Below, piece by piece: positions 21,556 through 42,565 of a stretch of DNA of 64,000 nt (positions within the stretch are counted from its first letter, which is position 1; each line of letters starts with the position of its first letter). The notes beneath the pieces were generated by a model, which made no database searches, was not told the DNA's origin, and saw only the letters and a program-made list of their open reading frames with translations. The stretch is from Candidatus Fervidifonticultor tertius (GTDB taxonomy: Bacteria; Sysuimicrobiota; Sysuimicrobiia; Sysuimicrobiales; Humicultoraceae): the NCBI GenBank assembly GCA_031459235.1, contig JAVKIY010000005.1:6559-70558 (forward strand), in the 5' to 3' direction. The translations under genes and the position numbers were made by a program.

Positions 21556-23901
21556 ATGGGCACGCGGTATTTCGGCGAACCGGTGCGGCGCCGCGAGGAC
21601 CCGCGCCTGCTGACCGGGCGGGGCACCTACGTGGACGACGTTCGGCCGCCGCTGCTCCTCCACGCGGCGGTGCTGCGCAGCCCGCACGCGCGCGCCCGCA
21701 TCAGCCGGCTCGACGCCTCGCGCGCGGCGGCGGCGCCGGGCGTCGCGCTCGTGCTCACGCACGCCGACCTGCCGCCGGCGCTGCGCGAGCCCCTGCCGCG
21801 GCTCATCCCCCACCCCGCGCTCGTCCACCACAAGACCCAGTACGCCCTGGCTCCGGGCCAGGTGCGGCACGTGGGCGAGCCCGTCGCGTTCGTGGTCGCC
21901 GAGAGCCGCTACCAGGCCGAGGACGCTCTCGACCTGATCGACGTCGCCTATGAGCCGCTGCCCGCGGTCACCGACCTGGAGGACGCGGTGCGGCCGGGCG
22001 CGCCGCTGGTGCACGACGACATGGGGACCAACGTGTGCGCCGAGTACACGCAGCGCGTGGGCGACCCCGACGCGGCGTTCGCGGCCGCGCCGCACGTCTT
22101 CCGCGAGCGGCTGCGCATGGACCGCGGCGCGGCGTCGCCCATCGAGACCCGCGGCGTGGTCGCGCTCTGGGACGCGCAGACGCGCGAGCTGGTGGTCTAC
22201 GACTCGACGCAGGCGCCCATCCGAATCCGCAACTACCTGGCGGCCCTGCTCGGGCTCCCGCAGAACCACGTCCGCGTGATCGCGCCCGACGTGGGCGGGG
22301 GCTTCGGCCCGAAGATCATGATGTGCTATCCGGAGGAGCTCCTGGTGCCGCACGCGGCGATGCGCCTGGGGCGGCCCGTCAAGTGGATCGAGGACCGCCG
22401 CGAGAACTTCGTCTCGATGAACCAGGAGCGCGAGCAGATCCACGACGCGGAGATCGCCGTGGACGCCGACGGCCGCATCCTGGCCGTGCGCACGCGGTTC
22501 CTCTACGACTCGGGCGCCTACATCCCCTACGGGATCATCGTGCCCATCGTCGCGAGCACGCAGCTCGTGGGGCCTTACCGCATCCCCAACTACGAGTGCA
22601 CCTTCAAAGCGGTCTTCACCAACAAGGTGATCGTGAGCCCCTACCGCGGCGCGGGCCGGCCGCACGGCTGCTTCGTCATGGAGCGGCTGATGGACCGGGT
22701 CGCCCGCGAGCTCGGGCTCGACCGCGCCGAGGTGCGGCGCCGGAACCTGATCCAGCCCCACGAGTTCCCCTACGACACCGGGCTGATCTTCCAGGACAAC
22801 GCCCCGCTCATCTACGACAGCGGAAACTACCCGGCGCTGTTCGCGCGCGCGCTCGAGCTGATCGACTACGAGGGCTGGCCGGCGGCCCAGGCCGCGGCGC
22901 GCCGCGAGGGCCGCGCGCTCGGCCTCGGGCTCGCGCTGTACGTGGAGGGCACGGGGATCGGCCCCTACGAGGGCTGCCGCGTCACCGTCGAGCCCAGCGG
23001 CAAGGTCTACGCCGCCACCAGCGTTGGCACCCAGGGCCAGGGACACTTCACGTCGTTCGCGCAGATCGTCGCCGATGCGCTCGGTGTGGACGTCGCGGAC
23101 GTGACGGTGACCACCGGCGATTCGGGCGCGTTCGGCTGGGGCACCGGCACGTTCGCGAGCCGGGCCGCGGTCGTGGCCGGCAACGCCGTGGCGCTCGCGG
23201 CCCGCGCGGTTCGCGACAAGGCGCTGCTCGTCGCGGCGCGGCTGCTCGAGGCCCGTCCCGAGGATATCGAGCTCGCCGGCGGCCGCGCCTTCGTCCGCGG
23301 CGCGCCCGCGCGGTCGGTGGCGCTCGGCGAGGTGGCCGTGGCCGCGAACCCGCTGCGCGGCACCATCCCCGCGGAGTGGGAAGGACCGGGGCTGGAGGCC
23401 TCCCGCTACTTCGCGCCGCCGCGCGGGACGTTCGCCGCGGGCTGCCACGCCGCCGTGGTGGAGGTGGACCGCGAGACCGGCGCGCTGCGTGTCCTGCGCT
23501 ACGTGGTCGTGCACGACTGCGGCCCGATTATCAACCCGCTCATTCTGACCGGTCAGATCGAGGGCGGCGTCGCGCAGGGCATCGGCAACGCCTTCTACGA
23601 ACAGATCGTCTACGATCCCGACGGGCAGGTCCTGACCCAAACCTTCATGGACTACCTGCTGCCCACCGCCTCGGAGGTGCCGCCGGTGGAGATCGCGCAC
23701 ATCGAGACCCCCTCGCCGCTGAACCCGCTGGGCGTCAAGGGGGCGGGTGAGGCCGGTGTCATCCCGGTCCCGGCAACGATCGCCTCGGCGATCGACGACG
23801 CGCTGGGAACCCGGATCACGCAGATGCCGCTGTCGCACCAGCGACTGCTTGAGCTGGCGCGGCGCGCGCCCGTGGGCGCGGCCGCTGGGGGCGCGGCGTG
23901 A
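21556..23901 (+). CDS. CoxL form-II-like molybdopterin large subunit, set 2 (PYRGAGRP)
   Basis: RREDPRLLTG, DVGGGFGPK, PYRGAGRP, GTFASR, KGAGEAG. Confidence 0.93.
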   Translation: MGTRYFGEPVRRREDPRLLTGRGTYVDDVRPPLLLHAAVLRSPHARARISRLDASRAAAAPGVALVLTHADLPPALREPLPRLIPHPALVHHKTQYALAPGQVRHVGEPVAFVVAESRYQAEDALDLIDVAYEPLPAVTDLEDAVRPGAPLVHDDMGTNVCAEYTQRVGDPDAAFAAAPHVFRERLRMDRGAASPIETRGVVALWDAQTRELVVYDSTQAPIRIRNYLAALLGLPQNHVRVIAPDVGGGFGPKIMMCYPEELLVPHAAMRLGRPVKWIEDRRENFVSMNQEREQIHDAEIAVDADGRILAVRTRFLYDSGAYIPYGIIVPIVASTQLVGPYRIPNYECTFKAVFTNKVIVSPYRGAGRPHGCFVMERLMDRVARELGLDRAEVRRRNLIQPHEFPYDTGLIFQDNAPLIYDSGNYPALFARALELIDYEGWPAAQAAARREGRALGLGLALYVEGTGIGPYEGCRVTVEPSGKVYAATSVGTQGQGHFTSFAQIVADALGVDVADVTVTTGDSGAFGWGTGTFASRAAVVAGNAVALAARAVRDKALLVAARLLEARPEDIELAGGRAFVRGAPARSVALGEVAVAANPLRGTIPAEWEGPGLEASRYFAPPRGTFAAGCHAAVVEVDRETGALRVLRYVVVHDCGPIINPLILTGQIEGGVAQGIGNAFYEQIVYDPDGQVLTQTFMDYLLPTASEVPPVEIAHIETPSPLNPLGVKGAGEAGVIPVPATIASAIDDALGTRITQMPLSHQRLLELARRAPVGAAAGGAA

Positions 23902-24773
23902 AGCCCGCGCCGTTTCGCTACGTGGCCCCGCGCACCCGCGCGGAGGCGCTCGACGCGCTGCGGCGGTACGGGTCGGACGCGAAGCTGCTCGCCGGCGGAC
24001 AGAGCCTGGTGCCGCTGCTGGCGATGCGGCTCGCACGTCCGGGGATCGTCATCGACCTCAACCGCATCGGTGACCTGGCCTACGTGCGGCCGGCGCGCGG
24101 GGGGGTGGCGATCGGGGCGATGACCCGGCAGCGCGCGGCCGAGGACGACCCGCTCATCGCGTCCCGGTACCCGCTGATGGTCGCGGCCTTGCGCTGGGTG
24201 GGCCACCCGCAGATCCGGACCCGCGGCACGATCGGCGGCAGCCTGGCGCACGCCGACCCCGCGGCCGAGCTCCCGGCGGTCGCCGCGGTGCTGGGCGCGC
24301 GCTTCGTGCTGGCGAACGCGCGGCGCGAGCGGATCGTGGACGCGGCCGACTTCTTCACCGGGTACCTGACGACGGCGCTCGGGCCAGACGAGATGCTGAC
24401 CGAGATCCGCCTCCCCCCACCGCCCGAACGGACCGGGTGGGCGTTCACCGAGGTCGCCCGCCGCCACGGTGACTTCGCCCTGGTCGGTGCGGCCGTACTG
24501 CTCGTCGGCGACGGCGAGGGCCGGTGCGCCGAAGCGCGCCTGGCGTTTGCGGGCGTGGGATACGGCCCGGTGCGTGTGCCCGAGGCGGAGCGTGCACTGG
24601 CCGGCGAGCGCGTGACCGAGGCGCTGGCCGCCGAGGTCCGCCGCATCGTCTCGCGCAGCGTCGAACCCGAGGGCGACATCCACGCGACGGCCGACTACCG
24701 CCGGCATGTCGCCGGCGTGCTGGCGGCGCGCGCCTTGATCGAAGCCGCCAGCCGTCTGGAGGTGCGAACATGA
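23898..24773 (+). CDS. FAD-binding medium subunit, set 2
   Basis: MKPAPF, LAGGQSLVP, IRTRGTIGGSLAHADPAAELP, RRHGDFA. Confidence 0.93.
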   Translation: MKPAPFRYVAPRTRAEALDALRRYGSDAKLLAGGQSLVPLLAMRLARPGIVIDLNRIGDLAYVRPARGGVAIGAMTRQRAAEDDPLIASRYPLMVAALRWVGHPQIRTRGTIGGSLAHADPAAELPAVAAVLGARFVLANARRERIVDAADFFTGYLTTALGPDEMLTEIRLPPPPERTGWAFTEVARRHGDFALVGAAVLLVGDGEGRCAEARLAFAGVGYGPVRVPEAERALAGERVTEALAAEVRRIVSRSVEPEGDIHATADYRRHVAGVLAARALIEAASRLEVRT

Positions 24774-25423
24774 AGCGAGCGCCGAAGAACGCGCGTCGGA
24801 GCCGGACAGCGGGCGCGTCCCGGCCAAGGCCCGGACGGGCACGGCGCCGCGCCCCGGGCGGGCGGAAGGTCGCGGGGCCGCGGGCGGCCGCGACCAGAGC
24901 GACAGCCGCCCTGCGGGGTCGCGCCGGGCGCCTCGTACCGGTCGGCGAGGCCGAGGTGCGCCTGGTGGTCAACGGCGCCGAGGTGCGCCGCACGGTCGAG
25001 GTGCGCCGGACGCTCGCGGACTTCCTGCGGGAGAACCTGGGCCTGACCGGTACGCACCTGGGCTGCGAGCACGGCGTCTGCGGTGCGTGCACCGTGCTCC
25101 TGGACGGCCAGCCCGTGCGGTCGTGCCTGCTGTTCGCGGTGCAGGCCACGGGCCACGAGGTCACGACGGTCGAGGCGCTCGGCACGCCCGAGGCGCTCTC
25201 ACCGCTGCAGCAGGCGTTTATGGACCACCACGGCCTGCAGTGCGGCTTCTGCACGCCGGGCATCCTGATGAGCGCCCATGCGCTGCTCCGCGACCGCCCC
25301 CGCGCCACCGAAGAGGAGATCCGCGAGATGCTCGGCGGCCACCTCTGCCGCTGCACCGGCTACCAGGGCATCCTCCGCGCGCTGCGCGCCGCCGCCGGCC
25401 TGCCACCGAACCCGGTGCACTGA
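24770..25423 (+). CDS. [2Fe-2S] small subunit, set 2, with Arg-rich N-terminal extension
   Basis: [32 protein letters not shown] overlap with SD GGAGGT; alternative GTG at 24956. Confidence 0.9.
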   Translation: MKRAPKNARRSRTAGASRPRPGRARRRAPGGRKVAGPRAAATRATAALRGRAGRLVPVGEAEVRLVVNGAEVRRTVEVRRTLADFLRENLGLTGTHLGCEHGVCGACTVLLDGQPVRSCLLFAVQATGHEVTTVEALGTPEALSPLQQAFMDHHGLQCGFCTPGILMSAHALLRDRPRATEEEIREMLGGHLCRCTGYQGILRALRAAAGLPPNPVH

Positions 25424-25443
25424 CCCGCAGCCGACGGGGCGCT

Positions 25444-25515
25444 GGCCATTGCATCGGATCCGTCCTCGGCGCGGTCCTGATCCTGGCCCTCTACCGCGCC
25501 GTCAGGAAGCCGTCA
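25444..25515 (+). pseudogene. C-terminal remnant of a GlsB/YeaQ/YmgE (transglycosylase-associated) membrane protein
   Basis: Reads GHCIGSVLGAVLILALYRAVRKP, like the last TM helix of that family, with no start codon or N-terminal part. Confidence 0.5.
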
Positions 25516-26384
25516 CGAGCATCGTCTTGCGCGCACGCTGGCTCCCGGCGCCGCTGGGCGGCTTCATCGGTGCCGCAGGTCGCGGGCGCGTGCTCGCCGC
25601 GTTCGCGCGCAGCGCCTACCTCGAGGTGCGCGGCGAGGTCGTGGCGCTGGCCGCCGCCGGCCTGGACCGCGGGCCGCTGGTGATCCTGGTGGACGGCTTC
25701 GACGGCGGGCGGCTGTCACCGGGTGACGAGGTGGCGCTCGCGGGCGGGCGGCTGCGCGTGGCCGCCTACGACATCGCGCTCGACGGCGCGGATCCGTGGG
25801 ACCCCACCCTGCCGACTCCTCCGGCCGGTGCGGTCTCGCGCCTGCCCGACGTGGAGCGTGCGCTCGCCCGAGGGGCGCCGCCAGAGAGCGCTGCGGCGCT
25901 GCTCGGGCACCCGCCGGCCGCGGTGTCCGCCCGGCACCGGCGGCTCCTTGACAGTCTTTGCGCAGGGCTCGCCGTCCTGGAAGACACGCTGCGAGGCCTC
26001 GACGCGTGCGGCGATCTCGCCGCAGCCGTGGGCCACATCGCCGGCCGGGGCCCGGGGCTCACGCCGTCGGGCGACGACGTGCTGGTCGGCGTCCTGCACG
26101 CGATGACAGCATGGCCCGCCCTCGCCGCAGCGGCGGGCGGCCCCGAGGTGCGACGCCGCATCGCCCGTGCGGCGAGTCCCCTGACCACGCGCATCAGCGC
26201 GGCCTACCTGCGGGCCGCATCCGAGGGATGGGCGGCCGAACCGTGGCACACGCTGGTGGGGGCGCTGGACGGGACGGACGAGGCGCTGGGGGCCGCGGTG
26301 GCGGCACTGCTTCGGGTGGGCGAGACATCCGGCGCCGACGCGTTGACCGGGTTCTGCTGGGCGGCGCGGAGGCTTGGCGCCTGA
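25512..26384 (+). CDS. DUF2877 protein (YlbF/YahE/AllH-like)
   Basis: GRGPGLTPSGDDVLVG and GETSGADALTG signatures. Start unclear (GTC at 25512 or TTG 25527). Confidence 0.85.
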   Translation, partial: VTSIVLRARWLPAPLGGFIGAAGRGRVLAAFARSAYLEVRGEVVALAAAGLDRGPLVILVDGFDGGRLSPGDEVALAGGRLRVAAYDIALDGADPWDPTLPTPPAGAVSRLPDVERALARGAPPESAAALLGHPPAAVSARHRRLLDSLCAGLAVLEDTLRGLDACGDLAAAVGHIAGRGPGLTPSGDDVLVGVLHAMTAWPALAAAAGGPEVRRRIARAASPLTTRISAAYLRAASEGWAAEPWHTLVGALDGTDEALGAAVAALLRVGETSGADALTGFCWAARRLGA

Positions 26385-26385
26385 G

Positions 26386-28149
26386 TCAGCCGGCCTGGCC
26401 GCCGCCGGCGCCCGCCGCAGAGGGCCCGGCCGGACGTCGCTGCAGCCGCTGCTCGACCGACTCGAGCAGTTCCTGCACGCCGCGCGCCACCTCGCGCCAG
26501 GCGCTGCCGTACTGCCCCATGGTCCGGTACTTCCGGTAACGCCGCTCAACCAGCCGACGCGGAGGCAGCCGCCCCAGCTCCGCGAGCGCGGAGACCACGT
26601 AGCGACGCACCGCGGCCGCGGCCGCGTCGTGGTCGGCGTGCGCGCCGCCGGCCGGCTCCGGGATAATGCCGTCGATGACCCCGAGGCGCAGCAGGTCGGC
26701 CGCGGTGAGCTTGAGAGCCGCGGCCACCTCGGGCGCGCGCGCGGCGTCGCGGTAGAGGATCGCGGCGGCCGCCTCTGGGGAGATGACCGAGTAGAACGCA
26801 TGCTCCAGCATGTACACCCGGTCGGCGAGGCCCAGGGCGAGCGCCCCGCCGCTGCCGCCCTCGCCGATGACCACGGCCACCACGGGCGTCGGGAGCAGGG
26901 CCATTGCCTGGAGGTTGGCCGCCAGTGCCGGCGCGATGCCGCGCAGCTCGGCCTCGTAGCCGGGGTAGGCGCCGGGCGTGTCGATGAGCGTCAGCACCGG
27001 CAGGCCGAACGTGCCCGCGAGCCGCATCAGCCGCAGCGACTCGCGGTAGCCCTCGGGCAGCGGCATGCCCTGGTGGGGACCGCCGGGCCGGTCGGGCCAC
27101 GACCCGCGCTCCTGGCCGATGACGACCACCGGCTGGCCGTCGATCTCGCCGAGCCCGCCGACGATCGAGGGGTCGTCGCCCGACTGGCGGTCGCCGTGGA
27201 GCTCGACGAACGAGGCGACCATCCGCCGGATGTAGGCGAGCGCCGTGGGCCGCTGCGGGTGACGCGCAGCCTGGACGACGTCCCAGGCTTCCGGTGGCTG
27301 CGTCTGCGGCGCACGCGGGAGCCGCTCGGCGGCCAGGTGTCCCCGCGGGCCGCGGCGGAGGTGGCGCAGGAGGTACTGCACGACCTCGCGCAGCCGCCGC
27401 CGGTCGAGCACCAGGTCCACCATGCCACCGGCAAACAGGCGCTCCGCGCGGTGCGAGTCCGGCGGCAGCACCTCGCCGACCGTGGCCTCGATCACGCGCG
27501 GGCCGACGAACCCGACCTGGGCACCCGGTTCCGCGATGAGGATATCTCCCAGCGAGGCGAAGCTCGCGGTCACGCCGCCGAACGTAGGGTGCGCGAGCAC
27601 CGAGACGTACGCCAGCCCGGCCGCGTGGTGGCGCGCGCGCGCGGCCGCGGTCTTGGCCATCTGGACCAACGATAGCATGCCCTCCTGCATGCGCGCGCCG
27701 CCGCTGGCGGTCACCGTCACCACGGGCAGCCGCCGGCGTGTGGCAACCTCGAACGCCTTCGCGATCTTCTCGCCGACGACCGACCCCATGGTGCCGCCCA
27801 GGAACGCGAACTCGAAGACCGCGAGCACCACCGGGAGACCGCCGATGCGCGCCGCTCCGACCACGACCGCCTCGCGCAGGCCCGTGCGGCGGCGCGCCTC
27901 GATCAGGCGCGCGCGGTAGGCGCGCTGGTCCGCGAACCGTAGCGGGTCGGTGGAGATGAGCCCGCGGTCGAACTCGCGGAACGTGCCAGCGTCGACCAGC
28001 GAGGCGATGCGATCGCGCGCCGGCATCCCGAGGTGCGCGCCACAGGCAGGACACACCCACAGGCTCTGGCGCAGCGCGTCCTCCGACGCCTCGGCCCCGC
28101 AGGCCGGGCAACGGTGCACAGCCGGCCCGGCCGACCTAGACCGCGCCAT
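26386..28149 (-). CDS. accDA: Fused carboxyltransferase beta/alpha subunit (AccD-AccA)
   Basis: CPAC...CPAC Zn finger, GGTMGSVVGEK, SGGARMQEG, then ELHGDR, LIDTPGAYPG, GEGGSGGA, SVISPEA. Confidence 0.92.
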   Translation of the reverse strand: MARSRSAGPAVHRCPACGAEASEDALRQSLWVCPACGAHLGMPARDRIASLVDAGTFREFDRGLISTDPLRFADQRAYRARLIEARRRTGLREAVVVGAARIGGLPVVLAVFEFAFLGGTMGSVVGEKIAKAFEVATRRRLPVVTVTASGGARMQEGMLSLVQMAKTAAARARHHAAGLAYVSVLAHPTFGGVTASFASLGDILIAEPGAQVGFVGPRVIEATVGEVLPPDSHRAERLFAGGMVDLVLDRRRLREVVQYLLRHLRRGPRGHLAAERLPRAPQTQPPEAWDVVQAARHPQRPTALAYIRRMVASFVELHGDRQSGDDPSIVGGLGEIDGQPVVVIGQERGSWPDRPGGPHQGMPLPEGYRESLRLMRLAGTFGLPVLTLIDTPGAYPGYEAELRGIAPALAANLQAMALLPTPVVAVVIGEGGSGGALALGLADRVYMLEHAFYSVISPEAAAAILYRDAARAPEVAAALKLTAADLLRLGVIDGIIPEPAGGAHADHDAAAAAVRRYVVSALAELGRLPPRRLVERRYRKYRTMGQYGSAWREVARGVQELLESVEQRLQRRPAGPSAAGAGGGQAG

Positions 28150-29326
28150 CGCGGTGCATCGCGGCGATCGCCGCGTCGTCGAAACCGCATTCGCGCAGGA
28201 TCGCGTCGGTGTGCTGACCCAGCACGGGTGGCGGCGCGGCGACGCGGCCCGGCGTCTCGGACAGCTTCACGGGCACACCGGTCTGCCGGATGCGGCCCGC
28301 GCGCGGGTGGTCGACCTCCACCACCATCCCGCGGTGACGCACCTGCGCATCCGCGAACAGGTCGGCCATCAGGTAGATGGGGCCAGCGGGCACGCCGGCC
28401 GCCTCGAGGGCGCGCGTCCACTCCGCGGTCGTCCGCGACGCGAAGAGCTCCTCGAGCAGCGCCACCAGCGCGTCGCGGTGGGCCACCCGGTCAGCGTTGG
28501 TACGGAACCGGGCGTCCGCGGCCAGGTGGGGCGCGCCGACGGCCTGGGTGAAGCGGCTCCAGATCGCCTCGCTGCCGACGGCCACGTTGACGTAGCCATC
28601 GCGCGTGCGGAACGCCTGGTAGGGCACCAGCGAGGGATGCGCGCTGCCCAGCCGCCGCGGGTTCTCACCGGTCGCGAAGTAGTGCCCGGCCTGGTAGGTC
28701 ATCCAGCCTACCTGGGCGTCGAGCATGGCGGCGTCCACGTGCTGGCCGCGGCCCGTCCGGGCGCGCACGTGCAGCGCCACCATGATGCCGAAGGCCGCGA
28801 ACATGCCCGCGGCGATGTCGGTCACCGCCACCCCCACCTTCACGGGTGGCCGGCCCTCCTCCCCGGTCGTCCCCATCAGTCCGCCCATGCCCTGGACGAT
28901 CAGATCGTAGGCGACGCGCTCGCGGTAGGGCCCGTCCTGGCCGAACCCCGAGATGGACGCGTACACCAGCCGCGGATAGGCGGCGGCCACCGCCGCGTAG
29001 CCGAAGCCGAGCCGGTCCATGATACCCGGCCGGAAGTTCTCGACCAGGACGTCGGCGCGGGCGAGCAGCCGCCGCAGCACCTCCTGGCCCGCCGGGTGCT
29101 TGAGGTTGAGGGTAAGGCTCTCCTTGTTGCGGTTCACCCCGAGGAAGTACGCGCTCTCGCCGCCCACGAACGGCGGGCCCCAGCCGCGGGTGTCGTCGCC
29201 GCCGTCGGGGCTCTCCACCTTGATGACGCGCGCCCCCATGTCGCCGAGCATGGTGGTGCAGTAGGGCCCGGCGAGCGCGCGGGTGAGGTCGAGGACCAGC
29301 AGGTCGCCCAGCGGACCGTCGCGCAT
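28136..29326 (-). CDS. CaiB/BaiF family III CoA-transferase
   Basis: VLDLTRALAGPYC, GARVIKVE, NRNKESL, ENFRPG, VTDIAAG. Confidence 0.95.
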   Translation of the reverse strand: MRDGPLGDLLVLDLTRALAGPYCTTMLGDMGARVIKVESPDGGDDTRGWGPPFVGGESAYFLGVNRNKESLTLNLKHPAGQEVLRRLLARADVLVENFRPGIMDRLGFGYAAVAAAYPRLVYASISGFGQDGPYRERVAYDLIVQGMGGLMGTTGEEGRPPVKVGVAVTDIAAGMFAAFGIMVALHVRARTGRGQHVDAAMLDAQVGWMTYQAGHYFATGENPRRLGSAHPSLVPYQAFRTRDGYVNVAVGSEAIWSRFTQAVGAPHLAADARFRTNADRVAHRDALVALLEELFASRTTAEWTRALEAAGVPAGPIYLMADLFADAQVRHRGMVVEVDHPRAGRIRQTGVPVKLSETPGRVAAPPPVLGQHTDAILRECGFDDAAIAAMHRDGAV

Positions 29327-29344
29327 GCTCAGAGGCCCGGGGGC

Positions 29345-31348: not shown

Positions 31349-31385
31349 CTCCCCCTCCTGGCCGGCTGGTGCACCACGACCCTCG

Positions 31386-31410
31386 TACGCAGGGGGCGCC
31401 CGGCCGGTTC
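31386..31410 (-). promoter_or_regulatory. Putative ECF-sigma promoter GAACC-N16-CGTA
   Basis: Lies upstream of the Kelch gene with the same spacing as the motif at 46545-46570. Confidence 0.45.
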
Positions 31411-31502
31411 GCGCGCCCGGGAGATGCGGGCCACACGCGCCGTTCGGCCCGGCCCGGGCAGGGAAAGGCGCGGGTGGAGCGTAATCTCCCTGCGACCCCA
31501 CG

Positions 31503-32771: not shown

Positions 32772-33586
32772 GCGCGGACGCCGCGCCGGCCCGGCCCGCC
32801 GCGCGCCCCGGCCCGCGGGTGCGGCTCCCGGTCGCGGAGCTGCGCTCCTGGGCGATCTTCGGTGCGCTCGCCGTGGCCGCGTGGGAGGCGGCCTCCCGAC
32901 TGTACGGGCAGCCCTACCTGCTGCCCGCGCCGTCGGCGATCGCCGCGGAGTTCCGCGAGCACTGGCCGCTGGTGCTCGGCTACGCGGCGATCACCAGCCA
33001 GGAGATCGTCGTCGGGTTCCTGGCGGGCGCCCTGGCGGCCCTGCTGTGCGCGATGGTGTTCCTGCGGCTCCCGCGCCTGGTCGAAGACTTCCTCTACCGG
33101 GTGATCGTCACGCTCAACAGCACGCCCTTCGTCGCGCTGGCTTCGCTGGCGGTGGTGTGGTTCGGGCTGGGGCTGCAGAGCAAGATCGTCATCGCGGGCA
33201 TGTACACGTTCTTCGCGGTCCTCTACACGACGCACAAAGAGTTCATCTCGGTCGAGGTCATCCGCGAGCAGTTGATGGACATCTACAACGCGACCTGGTG
33301 GCAGCGGATCTTCCTGCTCAAGATCCCCTCGGCGCTGCCCATCATCTTCGTGAGCCTCAAGGGCGGGGTCATGGCCGCCGTGAATGGCGCGATCGTCGGC
33401 GAGCTCTTCGGCGCGTTCGAAGGGCTCGGCTACATGATCCTGGACTCGCGGTACGTGGGCAACACTGTGCGGGTGTTCCTGGCCGCGGTCTTCTGCACCG
33501 CTATCGGGTGGCTGCTCCTCGGCGCCGTCACGCTCGCCGAGCGCCTGCTGCTGCCCTGGCACGTGAGCATGGCCGGGCGCCGGTAG
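32768..33586 (+). CDS. NitT/TauT-family ABC permease
   Basis: LLPAPSAI, VWFGLG, IPSALP, GAIVGEL..GLGY. ATGA overlap with codA. Confidence 0.9.
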   Translation: MSADAAPARPAARPGPRVRLPVAELRSWAIFGALAVAAWEAASRLYGQPYLLPAPSAIAAEFREHWPLVLGYAAITSQEIVVGFLAGALAALLCAMVFLRLPRLVEDFLYRVIVTLNSTPFVALASLAVVWFGLGLQSKIVIAGMYTFFAVLYTTHKEFISVEVIREQLMDIYNATWWQRIFLLKIPSALPIIFVSLKGGVMAAVNGAIVGELFGAFEGLGYMILDSRYVGNTVRVFLAAVFCTAIGWLLLGAVTLAERLLLPWHVSMAGRR

Positions 33587-33672
33587 CGCCCGGCGCGAGA
33601 GGAGGACGGAGGCCCAGGGGCGCTGCCCGGCCAGCAGTACGGTTCCACCAGACGCACGAGGGGGGAGACGCG

Positions 33673-34671
33673 ATGCGCATCGCACTGCGAATGGCCGCCC
33701 TGCTCGCCGCGGTCGTGCTGGCCAGCGCCGGGACGCTGGCGGCGCAGGGCCTAACGAAGGTCACGATCATCGAGGCGTGGTTCATCCACAACGAGTCCAT
33801 GGGCGATCCGGTCGCCGTGGAGAAGGGGTTCTACCGGAACCTGGGGCTCGACGTCCGCGTCGTCGGCGGCGGCCCGGGGCTCTCTCCGATCGACCGCGTG
33901 ATGGCCGAGTCCAAGAAGGGCACGATCGTCTTCGGCGTGGACTACCCTTACAACATCCTCGACGCGCGGGAGAAGCAGCGACTCCCGCTGGTCGTCGTGG
34001 CGCACGACTTCCAGCGCTCCGCGGTGCGGCTCTTGTCGTGGAAGGAGCTGCGGGGCCCGCGCGATGTGGAGGGCACGGTGGCCACCTGGATCGGATACGA
34101 CAAGCAGATCAAGGCGGCGATCGGTCCGGACTGGGAGCGCCGCATCCGAGTCGTCAACCAGCAGGGCGACCCGGCCACCATCGGCTCCTGGCTGAAGAAG
34201 GACTACCAGTTCGCGCACGCGATGATCTACAACGAGGTGCTGGTCGCCAAGCGCACCGCCAAGGAGCGGTACTACGTCTACGACTTCCCGTCCTGGGGGA
34301 TCGACTGGCCGGAGAACGTCGTCTTCACCACCGAGGAGATCGTCCAGAAGCACCCGCAGGTCGTGCAGGCCTTCGTGACCGGCCGCTACCAGGGCTACAA
34401 GTACGCGCTGGCTAACCGGCAGGAGACCGTGCGGATCCTGGTCCAGTACAACAGCAATCTCAAGGGCGGCGAGGCGCACGAGCTCGAGGGCATGGACGGC
34501 ATCGCCTCGATCATGGTGACCGACACCTCGCGGCGCCACGGGCTGGGGTACGTGGACCCGGCCGGCTGGCAGCGCGTGGGCCGCGACATGCAGCGAGCGG
34601 GCTTCTACCGCACGATGCCGAACGTCACCGCGGCCTACTCCACCCGGTTCCCGAGCAAGGTGATGCCGTAG
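33673..34671 (+). CDS. NMT1/THI5-like ABC substrate-binding protein
   Basis: Signal peptide, W......VAVEKGFY..LGLDV....GGP, AMIYNE. Lies in the codA operon. Confidence 0.85.
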   Translation: MRIALRMAALLAAVVLASAGTLAAQGLTKVTIIEAWFIHNESMGDPVAVEKGFYRNLGLDVRVVGGGPGLSPIDRVMAESKKGTIVFGVDYPYNILDAREKQRLPLVVVAHDFQRSAVRLLSWKELRGPRDVEGTVATWIGYDKQIKAAIGPDWERRIRVVNQQGDPATIGSWLKKDYQFAHAMIYNEVLVAKRTAKERYYVYDFPSWGIDWPENVVFTTEEIVQKHPQVVQAFVTGRYQGYKYALANRQETVRILVQYNSNLKGGEAHELEGMDGIASIMVTDTSRRHGLGYVDPAGWQRVGRDMQRAGFYRTMPNVTAAYSTRFPSKVMP

Positions 34672-34679
34672 GCACCGCC

Positions 34680-34712
34680 CGGGCGGGGGCGGCGGGCCGC
34701 CGCCCCCGCCCG
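34680..34712 (+). other. Strong GC stem-loop between the SBP and ATPase genes (mRNA stabiliser/attenuator)
   Basis: GGGCGGGGGCGGCGG (34681-34695) is the exact reverse complement of 34697-34711. No U-tract follows. Confidence 0.65.
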
Positions 34713-34729
34713 CCGCGGGTGTTCGCCCC

Positions 34730-35581
34730 ATGACCGCCGCCGTGACCGCGCCGATCATCCGGCTGGAGGCCGTTTCGAAGACCTACGACCTGCCCCGCGC
34801 CGGCGCGCGCGGCGCCGCCGACCGCGCGCTCAACGTCGTCTACGACCTCTCGCTGGACGTCCAACCGCGGGAGTTCGTCTCGATCGTGGGGCCCTCGGGG
34901 TGCGGCAAGACCACCGCGCTGTTCATGCTGGCCGGGCTGCGCGAGGCCAGCGCGGGCCGCATCGAGGTCTGCGGCCGGCCGCCGCGGGAGGCTGTACGCG
35001 CGGGGCTCTCGAGCGTGATCTTCCAGCAGCCGGTGCTGTTCGAGTGGCTCACGGCCGAGGAGAACGTGCTGCTGCCGCTGCGCATGCGCGACGCCCGCTG
35101 GTGGGCCTGGCCCGCGCGCCGGGGTCGCTACCTGGCCGCGGCGCGGCGCGCGCTCGAGACCGTCGAACTCTCCGGGTTCGAACACTACTACCCGGACGCG
35201 CTGTCGGGCGGCATGCAGCAGCGCGTGGCGATCGCCCGCGCGCTCACGCTCGACCCCCAGGTGCTGCTCATGGACGAGCCTTTCGGCGCGCTGGACGAGA
35301 TCACGCGCGACCGCATGAACCTGGAGCTGATCCGTCTGGCCGAGGCCCGCGGGCTCACCATCGTGTTCGTCACGCACTCGATCGAGGAGGCGGTCTTCCT
35401 CTCGGACCGTGTGGTCGTCATGAGCCGCGGGCCGTCGCCGGCCACGGGATCGAGCGTGGTGCGGGTGCTCGACGTCGGACTGCCCCACCCGCGGCAGCTC
35501 GCCCTCAAAGAGGAGCCGGCGTTCTTCCAGAAGGTGCGCGAGGGCCGCGAGGCGCTGCGCCAGACGCAGGGCGTGGCCTGA
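34730..35581 (+). CDS. NitT/TauT-family ABC ATPase
   Basis: GPSGCGKT, LSGGMQQR, LLMDEPFGALD, VTHSIEEA. Confidence 0.95.
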   Translation: MTAAVTAPIIRLEAVSKTYDLPRAGARGAADRALNVVYDLSLDVQPREFVSIVGPSGCGKTTALFMLAGLREASAGRIEVCGRPPREAVRAGLSSVIFQQPVLFEWLTAEENVLLPLRMRDARWWAWPARRGRYLAAARRALETVELSGFEHYYPDALSGGMQQRVAIARALTLDPQVLLMDEPFGALDEITRDRMNLELIRLAEARGLTIVFVTHSIEEAVFLSDRVVVMSRGPSPATGSSVVRVLDVGLPHPRQLALKEEPAFFQKVREGREALRQTQGVA

Positions 35582-35859
35582 AGCCGCGCAGGCGCCCCTC
35601 TTCCTCGACCTCCAGCACCATCTCGATCTCGACCGCGATGTTCTGCGGTAGCGAGCCCGTCCCCACCGCCGAGCGCGCGTGCCGCCCGCCTCCCCGTAGA
35701 GCGCGACCAGCAGGTCCGCGGCGCCGTTGATCACCTGCGGCTGCTGCGCGAACTCGGGGTGCAGTGCACCATGCCGAGGAGCTTGACGACGCGCCGGACC
35801 CGGTCCAGGTCGCCGATCGCCTCCTTCACCGAGGCCAGGCAGTTGAGTGTTCCCACCAT
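35582..35859 (-). pseudogene. Degraded RidA/YjgF-family gene (5'-truncated, two frameshifts)
   Basis: Three frames join as LNCLASVKEAIGDLDRVRRVVKLLGMVHC / PEFAQQPQVINGAADLLVALYGEAG / RHARSAVGTGSLPQNIAVEIEMVLEV. Confidence 0.85.
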
Positions 35860-35998
35860 CCTCTCGGTCTCGCCCCGGGGGCGGCCTCTTCCCCATCAGG
35901 CCCACCGGGGGTAATCTCTTGCCCAGATGGGCCGTTGCTACGCTGGTGCCTCCGCGACGCCACGGAGCCTCGCCGCATCGAGGAAGGAGTGGCCTGAC

Positions 35999-36772
35999 AT
36001 GCATGCGATCCGTCCAGCCCTGGCCGCGGCGCGCCGCGCCGCCGGCCCGCTCGTTCTGGCGCTCGCCGCTGCCCTGGCGGGCGCCGCGGCGCCACCGCTG
36101 ACGGGCGCCCAGTCCACCACCACCCCCGTCAGCATCGTCGGCAAGCTGCGCGAGCTGAACCAGGCCGCGGTCGAGATCCGCCACATCGCGTTCACCCCGT
36201 CGGTCGGCGCGGTCATCCTGCACGGCCGGAACGACGCGACCTGGATCCGCGTGCCCACGAGCACCGGCGACAAGCTGCGCGAGCTCATCAATGCGGGATC
36301 GCTGATCCGCTACGTCGCTTTCGCCCCGGACGGCGGGTGGGTGATCTTGCACGGCACGAACGAGGCCACCTGGAACGGCATCCCCACAGCCCTCGCTGAC
36401 AAGATCCGCGAGCTCTACGGCGCCGGCAACCAGATGAAGGCCGTGGCCTTCACCCCCTCCGGCGGCTGGATCATCCTGCACGGCGGCAACGGCGCCAACT
36501 GGAGCACGGTGCCGCAGACCGCGGTGGACAAACTGCGCGAACTCAACCAGGCGGGCGAGACCTTCCGGGGCATCGCCTTCTCCGCCGGCGGCTGGGTCCT
36601 GCTCCACGGCGCCAACGAGGCCACCTGGAACGGCATCCCGCAGGGGACCGCCGATAAGATCCGCGAGCTCTACGCCGCCGGCAACCAGATGAAGCAGATC
36701 GCCTTCACCTCGGCGGGCGGCTGGATCATCCTGCACGGCACGAACGCCGCCGTGTGGAGCAACGTGCCCTAG
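35999..36772 (+). CDS. Secreted protein made of five ~43-aa tandem repeats
   Basis: SD GAGGAAGGAG and signal peptide, then 5x P....DK(L/I)REL..AG.....(I/V)AF...GGW.ILHG.N.A.W. Confidence 0.88.
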   Translation: MHAIRPALAAARRAAGPLVLALAAALAGAAAPPLTGAQSTTTPVSIVGKLRELNQAAVEIRHIAFTPSVGAVILHGRNDATWIRVPTSTGDKLRELINAGSLIRYVAFAPDGGWVILHGTNEATWNGIPTALADKIRELYGAGNQMKAVAFTPSGGWIILHGGNGANWSTVPQTAVDKLRELNQAGETFRGIAFSAGGWVLLHGANEATWNGIPQGTADKIRELYAAGNQMKQIAFTSAGGWIILHGTNAAVWSNVP

Positions 36773-38010
36773 CGGCCCAGCGCCTCCGCCATCGCCTCGA
36801 CGGCCTGCTCAAAGCAGGCCATCGGCGGCCGCACGAGCCCGGCGCCGATCTGGCCGACGCCCGGGCGGTGGTGCGCGATCCCGGTGTTGACCCGCGGGGT
36901 GAGGCCGGTGCGCACGACCTTGCGGATATCGATGCCCGTGGGCGTGCCCCGGAAGTCGAGCGGCGGCAGCCCGAAGGCCGGGTTCTCGCCGACCGTAATC
37001 TCGTACATCTCGAGCGTGGCGGCGACGGCCTCGGCGGGCGTGCCCCCGACGAACTTGACAATCGCCGGGGCGGCCGCCATGGCGAAGGCGCCGATGCCGG
37101 CGGTCTCCGTGATGGTGGAATCGCCGATGTCCGGGTTGGCGTCGGCGGCGGAGAATCCCGGGAAGTAGAGGCCGACCGGGACCTCGGCGGGCGCGACGAA
37201 CCAGCGGTCGCCTAGCCCGCTGACGCGGATGCCGAAGTCCGTGCCGTTGCGCGCCATGCAGGTCACGACCGTACTTCCGGCCACCCCGTGGGCCGCGTCC
37301 ATGGTGACCTTGCAGGCGGCCATGACCGGGTTCAGCACCGCCAGGTCGTTGTCGGCGAAGTAGCGCAGCACCGCCTCGAGCGCCTCGGCTGGTAGCCCGA
37401 CGCGCGCCAGGTGCGGCGCGAGCAGCCGGCCGAAGAGCGCCGAGCCGGCGCGGTTGCGGTTGTGTCCTTCGTCGCCCATCGTGAGCTGCTGGGCGATGAG
37501 GCTCTTGAGGTCGAGCCCGCCCATGCGCGCCAGGGCGTCAGCGACCGCGGGGCCCAGCACGTCGTTCATCCAGCGCAGCCGCGCGAGTACGTCGCCGGCG
37601 TAGGCGCCGTAGCGGAGCACCTTGCCGTAGCCCTCGTTCAGGTTGGAGTAGGCCCGCGCGCCCGACCCCCGGTCCTCCACAACGTACACCTGCATCGAGG
37701 CCGTGGTCACGCCGGCCATGGGTCCCACGGCGGCGTGGTGGTGGCAGGGTGCGAGCCGCACGTCGCCGCGCTCCACCAGGGCGACAGCCTCGGCCTCGGT
37801 CGCCGCGAGCCCCTCGAAGAGCAGTCCGCCGATCACCGCCCCGCGCAGCGGCCCGGACGCGCGGTCCCACGTCACCGGTGGCCCGGCGTGGAGGATGAGG
37901 TCGGGCCGCATGCCCGGAATGACGTCCCGGGCGGGCGCGACGCCGACGAGCGCGGGCTGCGCGCCCAGAATGCGGTCGAGGGCGATCTGGTTGGCGGCGT
38001 TGATGTCCAT
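36769..38010 (-). CDS. DUF1116 protein (YlbE/YahG/AllG-like)
   Basis: ILHAGPP, PCHH..AVGPMAG, MGDEGHNRN, RNGTDFGIR, NPDIGDSTITE, NTGIAH. Confidence 0.92.
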   Translation of the reverse strand: MDINAANQIALDRILGAQPALVGVAPARDVIPGMRPDLILHAGPPVTWDRASGPLRGAVIGGLLFEGLAATEAEAVALVERGDVRLAPCHHHAAVGPMAGVTTASMQVYVVEDRGSGARAYSNLNEGYGKVLRYGAYAGDVLARLRWMNDVLGPAVADALARMGGLDLKSLIAQQLTMGDEGHNRNRAGSALFGRLLAPHLARVGLPAEALEAVLRYFADNDLAVLNPVMAACKVTMDAAHGVAGSTVVTCMARNGTDFGIRVSGLGDRWFVAPAEVPVGLYFPGFSAADANPDIGDSTITETAGIGAFAMAAAPAIVKFVGGTPAEAVAATLEMYEITVGENPAFGLPPLDFRGTPTGIDIRKVVRTGLTPRVNTGIAHHRPGVGQIGAGLVRPPMACFEQAVEAMAEALGR

Positions 38011-39777
38011 CTATGCCTCCAGCCGGTCCAGCAGGTCCATCAGGTGCGGCTTGCCGCCCGCGGGCGGCCGCCAGTCCACCGCGACCACCGGCACCCCTTG
38101 GGTCTGCAGGCTCTCCGTGAACAGGTCCAGCCCGACAGAGATCACCGCGGGGCGCCCGGCCAGCAGGCTGGCGATCGGCCCGACCTCGGGCCACGGCGGT
38201 GGAACGGCTGCCGGCGCGACGCGCGACGGCGTCCACGCCGCGCGGGGGGCGCCGCGGCCCTCCAGCACGAGCCCGGCGAGCCGCGCGGCGCGCGCGTTGC
38301 TGTCCTCGACCAGCATGCCGGCCTCGGCCAGAACCTCGCGCTGCGCCGCGGCGTCCTGGGGATCCTCGTCGGTGCCGCACACCGAGCCCACGACCACCAA
38401 GTAGCGGCCGGCCCGGCGGGCCGCCTCGCGCACCTCGCGTAGCACGGGGGCGAGCGCGGTCGCCGGATCGGGGTGCGCGCCGTAGCCCAGCACAACGTCG
38501 AGGTCGATGACCGCGGTCTCGGGATCGGCCGCCTCCTGCCGCAGGCGTTGCAGGCGCAGGGTCGGGTCGAGCATCGGGTGCAGGCGACCCTGGGTGAACT
38601 CGTCCCCGCCCATGTCCACCACCGCGTGCCCGCGGCTGCGGGTCACCGGGTCGAGGACGTCCTCGGGCACCAGGGGCGCATTGGAGTAGATCGGGCCGAT
38701 GTGCGGTCGAAGCAGGACCAGCGTCTCGTAGCACAGCGTGCCACCGGAGAACAGGCCTCGCAGGTAGCGCGCACCCGCGTGCAGGCGCGCGGCCTCCTGG
38801 GCCGGCAGGCCGCGCAGCGCCGGGGGACCCGGATCACCGCCGCCCACGAGCCGCACAGCCTGACGCGCCGCGTCCTCCAGGCTGACTGCAGCGTGAACGT
38901 TGCCGCCGGCGGCGACCTGCGCGCCCAGAAACGCCACGACGACGGGCTTGCCGCATGCCGCCGCGGCGGCCAGCACCGTCGCCGCGACCGCCGGCGCCGG
39001 CGGCTTGCTGACCAGCACGATGACCGCGGTCGCCGGGTCCAGGGCGAGCGCCCGCAGCCCCTGGAGCATCGTCACACCGCCCACCGCCTCGGAGAGGTCG
39101 CGGCTCCCGGTGCCGATGGCGTGGGTGATGCCGGCGCCGAACCGGTGGATGAGGGACGTGACTTCCTGGAGCCCGGTGCCGGCCGCGCCGACGAGCCCGA
39201 TGCGGCCGGCGCGCACGCGGTTGGCGAACCCGAGCGCGGCGCCCGCGATGATCGCGGTGCCGCAGTCCGGGCCCATCAACAGCAGGCCCGCGGCGCGGCT
39301 GCGGGCCTTGAGCTCGATCTCGTGCTCGAGCGGGACGTTGTCGGAAAACAGCAGGACGTGCAGCCCTTCGTCGAGGGCCTCGGCGGCGACCGCCCGCGCG
39401 AACCGGCCGGGGACCGAGACGAGTGCGAGCCGCGCCTGTGGGAGCTGCCGGCGCGCCGCAGCGATGGTCTTCGGCCGGTAGGCGCCGCCCCCGGCGGTCT
39501 CGCGCCGCCGCACCAGCGCCTCCTGCGCGCGAGCCACCGCGGCCTCGGCCTGCTGGAGGGTCGCGGCGCGCGCGGCCACAACCAGATCGTCGGGGCCTGC
39601 GCGGTCCAGGTCGGGAAAGGCCAGCCCACCCTCGCGCAGGAGCGCCTTGTTGGCCTCGGTCGCCATGACGACGCCGGCCTCCTCGACGCCGGGCAACTCG
39701 CGCGCCTCGCGCTGCGCGAGCATCAGGGCCACGGAGTCGAAGTAGGCGCTGCGGCGGACGATCCCGACGACGGGCAC
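38011..39777 (-). CDS. fdrA: FdrA/YahF (AllF-like) acyl-CoA-synthetase-alpha-like protein
   Basis: YFDSVALM, LFSDNV, MGPDCGT, GTGSRDLS, GLFSGGTLCYE, DEFTQGRLHPMLDP, VDWRPPAGG. Confidence 0.92.
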   Translation of the reverse strand: MPVVGIVRRSAYFDSVALMLAQREARELPGVEEAGVVMATEANKALLREGGLAFPDLDRAGPDDLVVAARAATLQQAEAAVARAQEALVRRRETAGGGAYRPKTIAAARRQLPQARLALVSVPGRFARAVAAEALDEGLHVLLFSDNVPLEHEIELKARSRAAGLLLMGPDCGTAIIAGAALGFANRVRAGRIGLVGAAGTGLQEVTSLIHRFGAGITHAIGTGSRDLSEAVGGVTMLQGLRALALDPATAVIVLVSKPPAPAVAATVLAAAAACGKPVVVAFLGAQVAAGGNVHAAVSLEDAARQAVRLVGGGDPGPPALRGLPAQEAARLHAGARYLRGLFSGGTLCYETLVLLRPHIGPIYSNAPLVPEDVLDPVTRSRGHAVVDMGGDEFTQGRLHPMLDPTLRLQRLRQEAADPETAVIDLDVVLGYGAHPDPATALAPVLREVREAARRAGRYLVVVGSVCGTDEDPQDAAAQREVLAEAGMLVEDSNARAARLAGLVLEGRGAPRAAWTPSRVAPAAVPPPWPEVGPIASLLAGRPAVISVGLDLFTESLQTQGVPVVAVDWRPPAGGKPHLMDLLDRLEA

Positions 39778-42533: not shown

Positions 42534-42565
42534 GCGGAGCCTCCTGACGCCTCGTCCGGGGAGTG

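Follow-up and report, generated by a model that had tools for sequence, protein, structure and literature searches.

How might a bacterium that encodes a cytosine deaminase and a molybdenum hydroxylase, and in which no barbiturase is found, degrade pyrimidines oxidatively? The enzyme activities of oxidative pyrimidine breakdown were described decades ago, and the textbook route of Rhodococcus, Corynebacterium and Mycobacterium proceeds through uracil/thymine dehydrogenase (EC 1.17.99.4), barbiturase (EC 3.5.2.1) and ureidomalonase (EC 3.5.1.95). The question is raised by positions 21556-39777 of a 64,000-nucleotide stretch of Candidatus Fervidifonticultor tertius (the window, meaning the whole stretch analysed here), which corresponds to contig C55:6559-70558 of a metagenome-assembled genome (MAG) of 2.84 Mb in 109 contigs, 92% complete. 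A first-pass annotation of this DNA had read the span as a candidate oxidative pyrimidine pathway that dispenses with barbiturase. As that annotation had anticipated, the genes concerned co-occur: nine of them, encoding a molybdenum hydroxylase with AllH (MoL-MoM-MoS-AllH), a cyclase-family hydrolase with a CaiB-type coenzyme A (CoA)-transferase and a fused AccDA carboxyltransferase, and FdrA with AllG, travel together despite rearrangement, recur across phyla and are lost together. A literature search that left subscription journals and supplements outside its reach found no publication on this cluster or linking its families to uracil or barbiturate, and no published gene assignment for uracil/thymine dehydrogenase.

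The nine-gene set

The G+C content of the genome is about 73%, and because of this high value genes were called by third-position G+C; they were named from Pfam and NCBIfam profile scores relative to the cut-offs. All genes listed in the first-pass annotation were recovered within 21556-39777. On the plus strand, MoL (21556-23901; MoCoBD_1, MoCoBD_2 and hammerhead domain), the molybdopterin-binding large subunit of a CoxL/Qor-type hydroxylase, starts at ATG 21556 behind the ribosome-binding site GGGGGAGGAG. Its stop overlaps by 4 nt the gene for MoM, the medium subunit that binds flavin adenine dinucleotide (FAD) (23898-24773; FAD_binding_5 PF00941, 157 bits; CO_deh_flav_C PF03450, 86 bits). 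The small subunit MoS, with two [2Fe-2S] clusters (24770-25423; Fer2_2 PF01799, 107 bits; Fer2 PF00111), follows from an ATG at 24770 that overlaps the MoM stop and is preceded by GGAGGTG; GTG 24956 is an alternative start. AllH (DUF2877; about 25449-26384; PF11392, 86 bits against a cut-off of 25), the third subunit of an AllFGH-type carbamoyltransferase, completes this unit, its start being uncertain between TTG 25449 and TTG 25527. AllH converges stop to stop with the fused AccD-AccA carboxyltransferase AccDA (26386-28149; PF03255, 355 bits; PF01039, 145 bits), which belongs to a minus-strand unit with the overlapping family III (CaiB/Frc-type) CoA-transferase CaiB (28136-29326; PF02515, 477 bits) and the cyclase-family metal-dependent amidohydrolase, hereafter the cyclase (29345-30175; PF04199, 115 bits against 23). 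The third unit, also on the minus strand, consists of AllG (DUF1116; 36769-38010; PF06545, 314 bits against 27) and, abutting it with zero gap, the FdrA/AllF-like subunit with CoA-binding and CoA-ligase domains (38011-39777; NF004760, 528 against 433). All three AllFGH subunit families are above their thresholds. A scan of 21000-40500 for promoters and terminators gave no signal above shuffles.

Conservation within the order

Relatives comprised 61 genomes of the order, which record titles place in the phylum Candidatus Sysuimicrobiota (Armatimonadota in older labels); the titles of the closest include Fervidifonticultor, Thermofontivivens and Geohabitans. The tallies take in two unpublished genomes, G013 and G022, and no claim depends on these two alone. 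The cyclase is present at full length in 55 of the 61, with 77-91% identity, and AllG in 54. The two genes agree in 58 genomes (both present in 53, both missing in five), and the three discordant genomes are at most 73% complete. Loss extends to the carboxyltransferase: G035, G042 and G045 (89, 99 and 98% complete) are without the cyclase, AllG and fused AccDA, and keep split accD/accA. G001 lacks the fused AccDA and keeps the cyclase and AllG.

Twenty loci were selected from the 55 cyclase-bearing genomes because they lie on long contigs, and were read for 10 kb to either side of the cyclase. Of these, 18 contain CaiB and AccDA, 15 have an AllF/G/H gene, 12 a Mo subunit and six CodA, the cytosine deaminase. 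The order of the genes varies between families and the gene set is constant; AllH stays adjacent to MoS. In family f4 the nine genes form one uninterrupted block, in which MoL-MoM-MoS-AllH is followed on the opposite strand by AccDA-CaiB-cyclase-AllG-FdrA and neither codA nor ATP-binding cassette (ABC) genes are present. Because this nine-gene cluster has neither, codA and the importer of the window are taken to be lineage-specific additions.

Other phyla and variant clusters

Phylum and class names given here for MAGs outside the order (Bacillota, ANGP1, Chloroflexia, Acidobacteria) are those of the record titles. A cross-phylum scan with one genome per species gave 80 loci, in which the cyclase is still 71-91% identical. 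In 32 of these the sequence extends 5 kb or more to either side of the cyclase, and they carry a Mo subunit (24 loci), an AllF/G/H gene (19), CaiB (17), AccDA (16) or CodA (7), a grouping that exceeds chance. The full nine-gene set is also present in MAGs titled Bacillota and ANGP1.

Some clusters are built from partly different components. A Chloroflexia locus reads cyclase-MoM-MoS-MoL-amidase-CoxG-ACS-like ligase-AllH with AllG next to it (L095), and an Acidobacteria locus reads AMP-ligase-MoM-MoS-amidase-AllG-cyclase-MoL (L130). Between cluster versions, CaiB and AccDA thus alternate with an amidase and an AMP-forming ligase. The best NCBIfam model for the Acidobacteria ligase is malonyl-CoA synthase NF005702 (480 bits; cut-off 558), the next family scoring 360. 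The appearance of a malonyl-CoA-synthase-like ligase where CaiB and AccDA are absent lends weight to the malonate-activation step suggested in the first-pass annotation.

The molybdenum hydroxylase

The solved structures most closely related to MoL are 8uem CoxL (554 bits), 1t3q Qor, a quinoline 2-oxidoreductase (537), and 7dqx KDH, a 6-hydroxypseudooxynicotine dehydrogenase (488); xanthine dehydrogenases are not among these best relatives. When MoL was searched by tblastn against a plasmid collection, the two best matches were large replicons of Nonomuraea gerenzanensis (55% identity) and Embleya sp. NBC_00888 (53%), above the paralogues in its own genome (at most 47%). A tree was built from 25 large subunits; tblastn matches of fewer than 600 residues, and those with a read-through stop, were excluded, the Nonomuraea copy among them. 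The 13 cluster-linked MoL proteins, including that of Embleya, fall on one side of a branch with a Shimodaira-Hasegawa-like approximate likelihood ratio (SH-aLRT) of 99, apart from 11 paralogues of this genome.

Form I aerobic carbon monoxide (CO) dehydrogenases have the active-site loop AYXCSFR, with a Cu-binding cysteine. This signature is absent from the window MoL, which has PYRGAGR; the loop of the MoL clade, (S/T)PYRGAGR, is form-II-like and without the cysteine of AYRCSFR. MoL as a CO dehydrogenase was ruled out by this loop. The model NF040766 ('CODH_aero_grp5', 'aerobic carbon-monoxide dehydrogenase large subunit') nonetheless lies above its cut-off in the window MoL (1043.7 against 950) and reaches 1540.8 in the Embleya orthologue; its CO-dehydrogenase name is probably wrong for the MoL clade. 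The genome as a whole holds about 13 Mo-hydroxylase large-subunit paralogues, on contigs C55 (3), C22 (3), C84 (2), C38, C1 (2), C42 and C33, and that on C38 has AYRCSFR, the form I CO dehydrogenase signature.

A cyclase in the proposed place of barbiturase

A search for PF09663, the barbiturase/cyanuric acid hydrolase family, found no member in the window, as the first-pass annotation had stated, and none in the whole 92%-complete genome. The same search was positive in three of 94 genomes of the phylum, never adjoining the cluster. The hydrolase that does accompany the hydroxylase genes, the cyclase, carries a metal-binding His/Asp segment, HIATHLDAPLH, that does not vary among the 15 sequences aligned. 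Its structural model has a predicted local distance difference test (pLDDT) value of 70, low over residues 19-70, and a fold search with this model returned isatin hydrolases as the best matches (E 3e-10; template modelling (TM) scores of 0.5-0.6), followed by cyclase-phosphotriesterase and kynurenine formamidases. Identity to any solved member is only 16-24%. The kynurenine formamidase equivalog TIGR03035 (KynB) scores 39.6 bits, far from its cut-off of 223. The best sequence match, PDB 8F9X, is listed as an organophosphate-degrading cyclase-phosphotriesterase and gives no hint of the substrate. A cyclase paralogue (40% identity) on contig C20, whose neighbours include cupins and an ABC permease but no hydroxylase, was uninformative.

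The actinomycete clusters offer a further comparison. The Embleya locus contains CoxD, CoxE, XdhC, AllG, FdrA, PucR, a permease (RutG 368, uracil permease 286 and xanthine permease 169 bits), MoM-MoS-MoL, CoxG and a CN_hydrolase. An operon 8 kb further along comprises CaiB (47% identical), fused AccDA (41%), carbamate kinase (NF009007, 302 against 266) and a PF09663 hydrolase (498 bits); tblastn across the 30 kb read found no cyclase. Nonomuraea carries AllG, FdrA, AllH, PucR, two RutG-like permeases and MoM-MoS-MoL, and in the next 30 kb a PF09663 gene (77% identical to that of Embleya), a CN_hydrolase, the fused carboxyltransferase and CaiB, with no cyclase; all of these genes lie within about 45 kb. 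PF09663 therefore holds the place of the cyclase next to CaiB and AccDA, as expected if the two unrelated hydrolases share one job.

The first-pass annotation had also called for an amidase step, and an amidase gene is found inside variant clusters; none lies in 21556-39777. In the variants it is an AS amidase adjoining MoL (Chloroflexia, Acidobacteria and one family of this phylum, where G039 has it directly upstream of MoL with 379 bits) or, in the actinomycetes, a nitrilase-superfamily hydrolase. Pfam Amidase PF01425 has no match in the window, and the three copies in the genome are on other contigs. An amidase-ACS pair on C46 was rejected as the missing amidase, having housekeeping and respiratory neighbours and only 36-42% identity to the cluster amidases.

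FdrA, AllG and AllH

Purified E. coli AllFGH is reported to interconvert oxalurate with carbamoyl phosphate and oxamate, with Km values of 1.3 mM (carbamoyl phosphate) and 36.9 mM (oxamate) (PMC11326118). The three genes of the window do not form a single operon with carbamate kinase and allantoin-degradation genes: allH lies at 25449-26384, fdrA and allG at 36769-39777, and arcC on C42. The genome search for carbamate kinase proposed with the first-pass annotation thus found the gene, in a different cluster. That cluster (C42:8500-28400) comprises an M20 peptidase, a dihydropyrimidinase/D-hydantoinase (TIGR02033, 451 against 393), pyridoxal phosphate enzymes, two carbamoyltransferases and the carbamate kinase; next to it are genes for an NMT1-type ABC importer and a phosphoribosyltransferase, and MoS-MoL lies upstream. 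The cluster resembles ygeW-ygeX-ygeY-hyuA-yqeA of E. coli, the reductive uric acid pathway (bioRxiv 10.1101/2025.05.19.654654).

Many relatives carry a second AllG paralogue of 50-57% identity. The copy in G047 (C156:1-31820; 52%) is part of a purine-type cluster that also encodes adenosine deaminase, an amidohydrolase, a class-V aminotransferase, a urate oxidase of the membrane type (Urate_ox_N) and a further Mo-hydroxylase; 18 kb beyond this cluster there is a PF09663 gene, between a major facilitator superfamily (MFS) transporter and a luciferase-like oxidoreductase. As the second AllG of G047 belongs to a purine/urate cluster, the AllG of the window need not act on oxalurate, and two AllFGH systems in one genome would fit two substrates.

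CaiB and the fused AccDA

AccDA is a single fused chain that retains the AccD zinc ribbon, and it scores at the edge of the NCBIfam accA models (356.2 against 357 and 323 against 319.3) and of accD (315.8 against 317.45). The malonate decarboxylase models MdcD and MdcE lie far from reach (74.9 against 228 and 47.5 against 237). A housekeeping carboxyltransferase was ruled out: a separate accA (381-408 bits) adjoins accC (697-734 bits) beside the fused gene in five of five good relatives, and split accD/accA is found across the relatives. Judged by these comparisons of sequence, the fused AccDA is a dedicated paralogue and not the housekeeping enzyme. In the MAG itself no AccA/AccD-type gene was found besides the fused one, and the biotin carboxylases lie in methylcrotonyl-CoA and propionyl-CoA carboxylase clusters. 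The AccDA match in G031, G034, G058, G057 and G048 holds one in-frame TGA/TAG, for which a split gene, a frameshift or an assembly error is possible. CaiB, 47% identical to its counterpart in the Embleya operon, reaches the cut-off of no NCBIfam equivalog; the CoA:oxalate and formyl-CoA transferase models give 319 and 296 bits, below cut-off.

Nucleobase transport and deamination

Between the cyclase and AllG units, on the plus strand, are the genes for cytosine deaminase and an importer. CodA (31503-32771; NF006685, 505 against 483; NF005748, 499 against 438) is overlapped at its stop by the ATG of an ABC importer permease (32768-33586; PF00528), which is followed by the NMT1/THI5-like substrate-binding protein (33673-34671; PF09084, 67 bits), with the ribosome-binding site GAGGGGGGAG before its start, and by the importer ATPase (34730-35581; PF00005, 102 bits). 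The first-pass annotation had placed CodA and this importer in the pathway. Cytosine deaminase and pyrimidine-type transporters do recur alongside the cluster; codA and the ABC importer lie outside its conserved core and are lineage-specific. The neighbours of the cluster in relatives are Bmp/PnrA-type ABC systems (three families), an NCS2 permease, or an NMT1-type ABC system with CodA.

Besides the six relatives' loci, CodA adjoins the cyclase on a plasmid of Halostagnicola larsenii, where a 41%-identical cyclase homologue stands between Mo-hydroxylase subunits and cytosine deaminase with codB. Across haloarchaeal plasmids, cyclase homologues of 39-41% identity occur among nucleobase transporters, and these loci of Halobacteria may represent a related, distinct nucleobase pathway. 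Three such plasmid loci (L137, L139 and L140) carry the homologue with NCS2/SLC23 transporters, a Bmp ABC system, IclR, an amidohydrolase of about 475 aa and a CocE/NonD hydrolase.

Proposed pathway

Gene content, orthology, co-inheritance and the alternation of parts are established by the comparisons above. On their basis we infer, for every substrate and every reaction, a route that is probably followed in this organism: cytosine or uracil to barbiturate, ureidomalonate, carbamoyl phosphate plus malonamate, malonate, malonyl-CoA and finally acetyl-CoA. The NMT1-type ABC system would import cytosine, which CodA would deaminate to uracil. MoLMS, the proposed uracil/thymine dehydrogenase, would oxidise uracil to barbiturate and pass the electrons to the respiratory chain; thymine is probably also a substrate. 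The cyclase-family metallohydrolase would then open barbiturate to ureidomalonate, in the role of barbiturase. FdrA, AllG and AllH would phosphorolyse ureidomalonate to carbamoyl phosphate and malonamate, a step that would be chemically natural because ureidomalonate is oxalurate with one additional CH2. Carbamoyl phosphate could yield ATP via carbamate kinase or enter biosynthesis, and an amidase would convert malonamate to malonate and ammonia. CaiB, as a proposed malonate:acyl-CoA CoA-transferase, would form malonyl-CoA, which the fused AccDA would decarboxylate to acetyl-CoA and CO2, the two together acting as a CoA-based counterpart of malonate decarboxylase. In a thymine branch, methylmalonyl-CoA would be converted to propionyl-CoA. 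Co-occurrence, co-loss, the variant parts, the actinomycete PF09663 gene and the pyrimidine context of the neighbours, all examined in silico, support this barbiturase-free reading as it was first put forward.

Several points weigh against it. We infer the substrate of the cluster from its neighbours only, and the permease of the G008 cluster is nearer xanthine permease than uracil permease (256 against 110 bits). Bmp systems also carry purine nucleosides, and PucR regulators are named for purine catabolism. The genome also has upp, so that CodA could function in salvage only. In four of the 32 loci of the cross-phylum scan, neither a Mo subunit nor an AllFGH gene lies within 10 kb of the cyclase, and in the tree the Mo subunit from haloarchaea is a long branch that does not belong to the MoL clade. 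The span of this genome holds no amidase and no biotin carrier, and the carbamate kinase, although above its cut-off, belongs to the other cluster on C42. That cyclase and PF09663 complement each other is seen in two records, both from actinomycetes, and since the PF09663 protein of Embleya also exceeds the threshold for cyanuric acid amidohydrolase (486 against 360), sequence alone cannot name it a barbiturase. The AllFGH enzyme is known to act only on oxalurate and oxamate (PMC11326118).

Alternative explanations

The cluster could act on another ureide or N-heterocycle, either purine-derived and ending in oxalurate or of the hydantoin/parabanate type, with AllFGH as a true oxamate carbamoyltransferase and CaiB working on oxamate or oxalate. 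Oxalurate is the sole substrate demonstrated for AllFGH (PMC11326118), and the scores of CaiB with the CoA:oxalate and formyl-CoA transferase models are comparable to those with other models, all below cut-off. The xanthine-permease-like transporter adjoining the G008 cluster, the Bmp-type nucleoside ABC systems alongside in relatives and the PucR-family regulators in actinomycete loci also speak for such a substrate. We consider this explanation rather unlikely, since AccDA, at the accA/accD cut-offs, fits malonyl-CoA, whereas oxalyl-CoA has no enolisable position, and since the ligase that stands in for CaiB and AccDA is malonyl-CoA-synthase-like. CodA, codB and the RutG-like permeases indicate pyrimidines, the cluster contains no urate-to-oxalurate genes, the purine genes of G047 keep company with a different AllG paralogue, and the PF09663 hydrolase of the actinomycete version would be left unexplained. 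The substrate might instead be cyanuric acid, biuret or another triazine-type or urea-rich compound, with AllFGH splitting biuret- or allophanate-like molecules, as the match of the actinomycete PF09663 protein to the cyanuric acid amidohydrolase model would allow; allFGHK also adjoins triuret/biuret genes in nitrifier MAGs (PMC12625717). That chemistry requires no Mo-hydroxylase, CoA-transferase, carboxyltransferase or malonyl-CoA-synthase-like ligase, and no biuH, atzE or atzF turned up in Pfam scans of the annotated loci; we regard it as very unlikely.

Other alternatives keep the genes and change their roles. The cyclase could be the malonamate (or another) amidase, with the ring opened by an unrecognised protein or by AllFGH: characterised cyclase-family members cleave open amides, as kynurenine formamidase does, as well as lactams, and this cluster has no separate amidase. 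The cyclase coexists, however, with a separate amidase in Chloroflexia, Acidobacteria and G039, it is missing where the PF09663 ring-opener is present in loci that retain their own CN_hydrolase, and the best fold matches of its model, which is of moderate confidence, are isatin hydrolases, openers of lactam rings. Such an exchange of roles is unlikely in our view. Hardly probable at all is the absence of any common pathway, with MoLMS as a form-II CO dehydrogenase-like enzyme, AccDA serving fatty-acid synthesis and the neighbourhood as inherited synteny. It could appeal to the NCBIfam name of the MoL clade, 'aerobic carbon-monoxide dehydrogenase large subunit', and to the fused AccDA being the only AccA/AccD-type gene found in this incomplete MAG. 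It would have to contend with the PYRGAGR loop, which is without the AYRCSFR cysteine seen in the C38 copy, with the separate accD, accA and accC of relatives, and with an association that outlasts rearrangement, recurs across phyla and includes joint losses. A reversed, biosynthetic reading, in which pyrimidine is made from malonyl-CoA and carbamoyl phosphate, was set aside: pyrF is present and the neighbours are importers and a deaminase.

Returning to oxidative pyrimidine degradation, a wider proposal can be made that seems to us equally likely to hold or to fail. The NF040766 'group 5' MoL clade would be the uracil/thymine dehydrogenase and, with the cyclase as a 'barbiturase analogue', an AllFGH-type ureidomalonate phosphorylase and a CoA-based malonate decarboxylase, would form a widespread route, found in at least five phyla by titles and in a related haloarchaeal form, that converts pyrimidines to acetyl-CoA, ammonia and carbamoyl phosphate, the last giving ATP. 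If true, candidate genes would be named for uracil/thymine dehydrogenase, an unrelated metallohydrolase would be seen to replace barbiturase, the newly found AllFGH enzyme type would be extended to a second substrate and CoA-based malonate decarboxylation would be added. It would also correct a 'CO dehydrogenase' label that is carried by many genomes and feeds surveys of atmospheric CO oxidation. The related cluster is present in two cultured actinomycetes, Embleya sp. NBC_00888 and Nonomuraea gerenzanensis, and the idea is therefore directly testable.

Other genes of the window

Two unrelated genes lie between the catabolic units: a Kelch-repeat protein (30323-31348, minus strand) and a secreted-looking repeat protein of 281 aa with no Pfam match (35927-36772, plus strand), neither of which has a counterpart in the compact clusters of relatives. 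The N-terminus of the latter is hydrophobic, and a unit of roughly 40 residues (…KLRELN.AG…GGW.ILHG.N.A.W…) recurs about five times in it. Upstream of the span, on the minus strand, a CoxG/SRPBCC protein (16033-16497; PF06240, 85 bits), syntenic in family f1, is probably a hydroxylase accessory; its gene adjoins MoL in the Chloroflexia and Embleya clusters. Next to it lies a cytoplasmic asparaginase-family amidohydrolase (16560-17537, minus strand; PF00710, 187 bits, every NCBIfam asparaginase model being below cut-off), with no signal peptide evident, which adjoins CoxG in three of the four f1 relatives examined. As a guess, this protein could be a weak candidate for the malonamate amidase.

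MocA-like (MobA-family) nucleotidyltransferase and XdhC/CoxI genes (1768-3734, minus strand; PF12804, PF13478, PF02625), for Mo-cofactor maturation of the hydroxylases of the window, are syntenic with the cluster in relatives. They belong to a third hydroxylase unit (1768-12358) with a CoxD-like AAA ATPase, MoM (5643-6530, minus strand), an IclR regulator, MoS and MoL (7998-10310), followed by an F420-type luciferase-like oxidoreductase and a cupin; the best NCBIfam match of this MoL is 4-hydroxybenzoyl-CoA reductase alpha (530 bits, below cut-off). The region 46677-52928 holds a second Mo-hydroxylase set, on the minus strand (S 50341-50940, L 47976-50336, M 47125-47979), with the classic form-II loop AYRGAGR. 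A MaoC dehydratase follows this set, which faces the gene of an ACS-like ligase (50955-52928); the ligase and that of the Chloroflexia cluster share 55% identity. Between this set and fdrA, the minus-strand block 39814-46470 encodes an S41 peptidase with a PDZ domain, an OEP outer-membrane factor, a 166-aa protein, MacB, an ABC ATPase and HlyD, a tripartite efflux system that remains adjacent to fdrA in family f1. The end of the window (53013-63998, plus strand) is taken up by a glycosyltransferase run and an ABC-2 exporter pair, probably for a surface polysaccharide.

Comparison with known systems

With the textbook oxidative route the cluster would share the first step, in which a Mo/FAD/FeS hydroxylase converts uracil to barbiturate, and the intermediates barbiturate, ureidomalonate and malonate. 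It differs from that route in having a cyclase-family hydrolase instead of a PF09663 barbiturase. Ureidomalonate is proposed to be split by phosphate via an AllFGH-type enzyme, not hydrolysed to urea, and malonate to be carried to acetyl-CoA by CaiB and the fused AccDA. MoLMS has the three-subunit L/M/S architecture of the CoxL-family hydroxylases (Qor, 6-hydroxypseudooxynicotine dehydrogenase, form I and form II CO dehydrogenases), whereas MoL forms a clade of its own, with the PYRGAGR loop and with genes for a ring-opening hydrolase and AllFGH always alongside. The cyclase likewise shares Pfam family PF04199, the His/Asp segment and the predicted fold with isatin hydrolase, kynurenine formamidase and cyclase-phosphotriesterase; an insertion and an extended C-terminal part set it apart from the solved members, and it is 71-91% conserved across phyla.

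Malonate decarboxylase consists of the acyl-carrier transferase MdcA and the carboxyltransferase-like decarboxylase MdcD/MdcE, and a biotin-dependent Mad system is known from Malonomonas. The logic would be the same, in that thioester exchange activates malonate, AccD/AccA-type subunits decarboxylate it and the acetyl thioester is regenerated. The resemblance is in logic only: the set of the window would be CoA-based, with no acyl carrier protein and no MdcA, and AccDA lies near the AccA/AccD cut-offs instead. The AllF-AllG-AllH system of E. coli with AllK (Kim and Kim 2024, PMC11326118) comprises the same three protein families and the same type of reaction as proposed here, in which an acyl-urea and phosphate give carbamoyl phosphate and an amide. 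The genes of the window, in contrast, lie in two places, allH after the hydroxylase genes and fdrA-allG 10 kb away, with no allK or allantoin genes alongside, and their proposed substrate is one carbon longer. We rate the cluster, set beside these systems, as a pathway variant with several non-homologous replacements.

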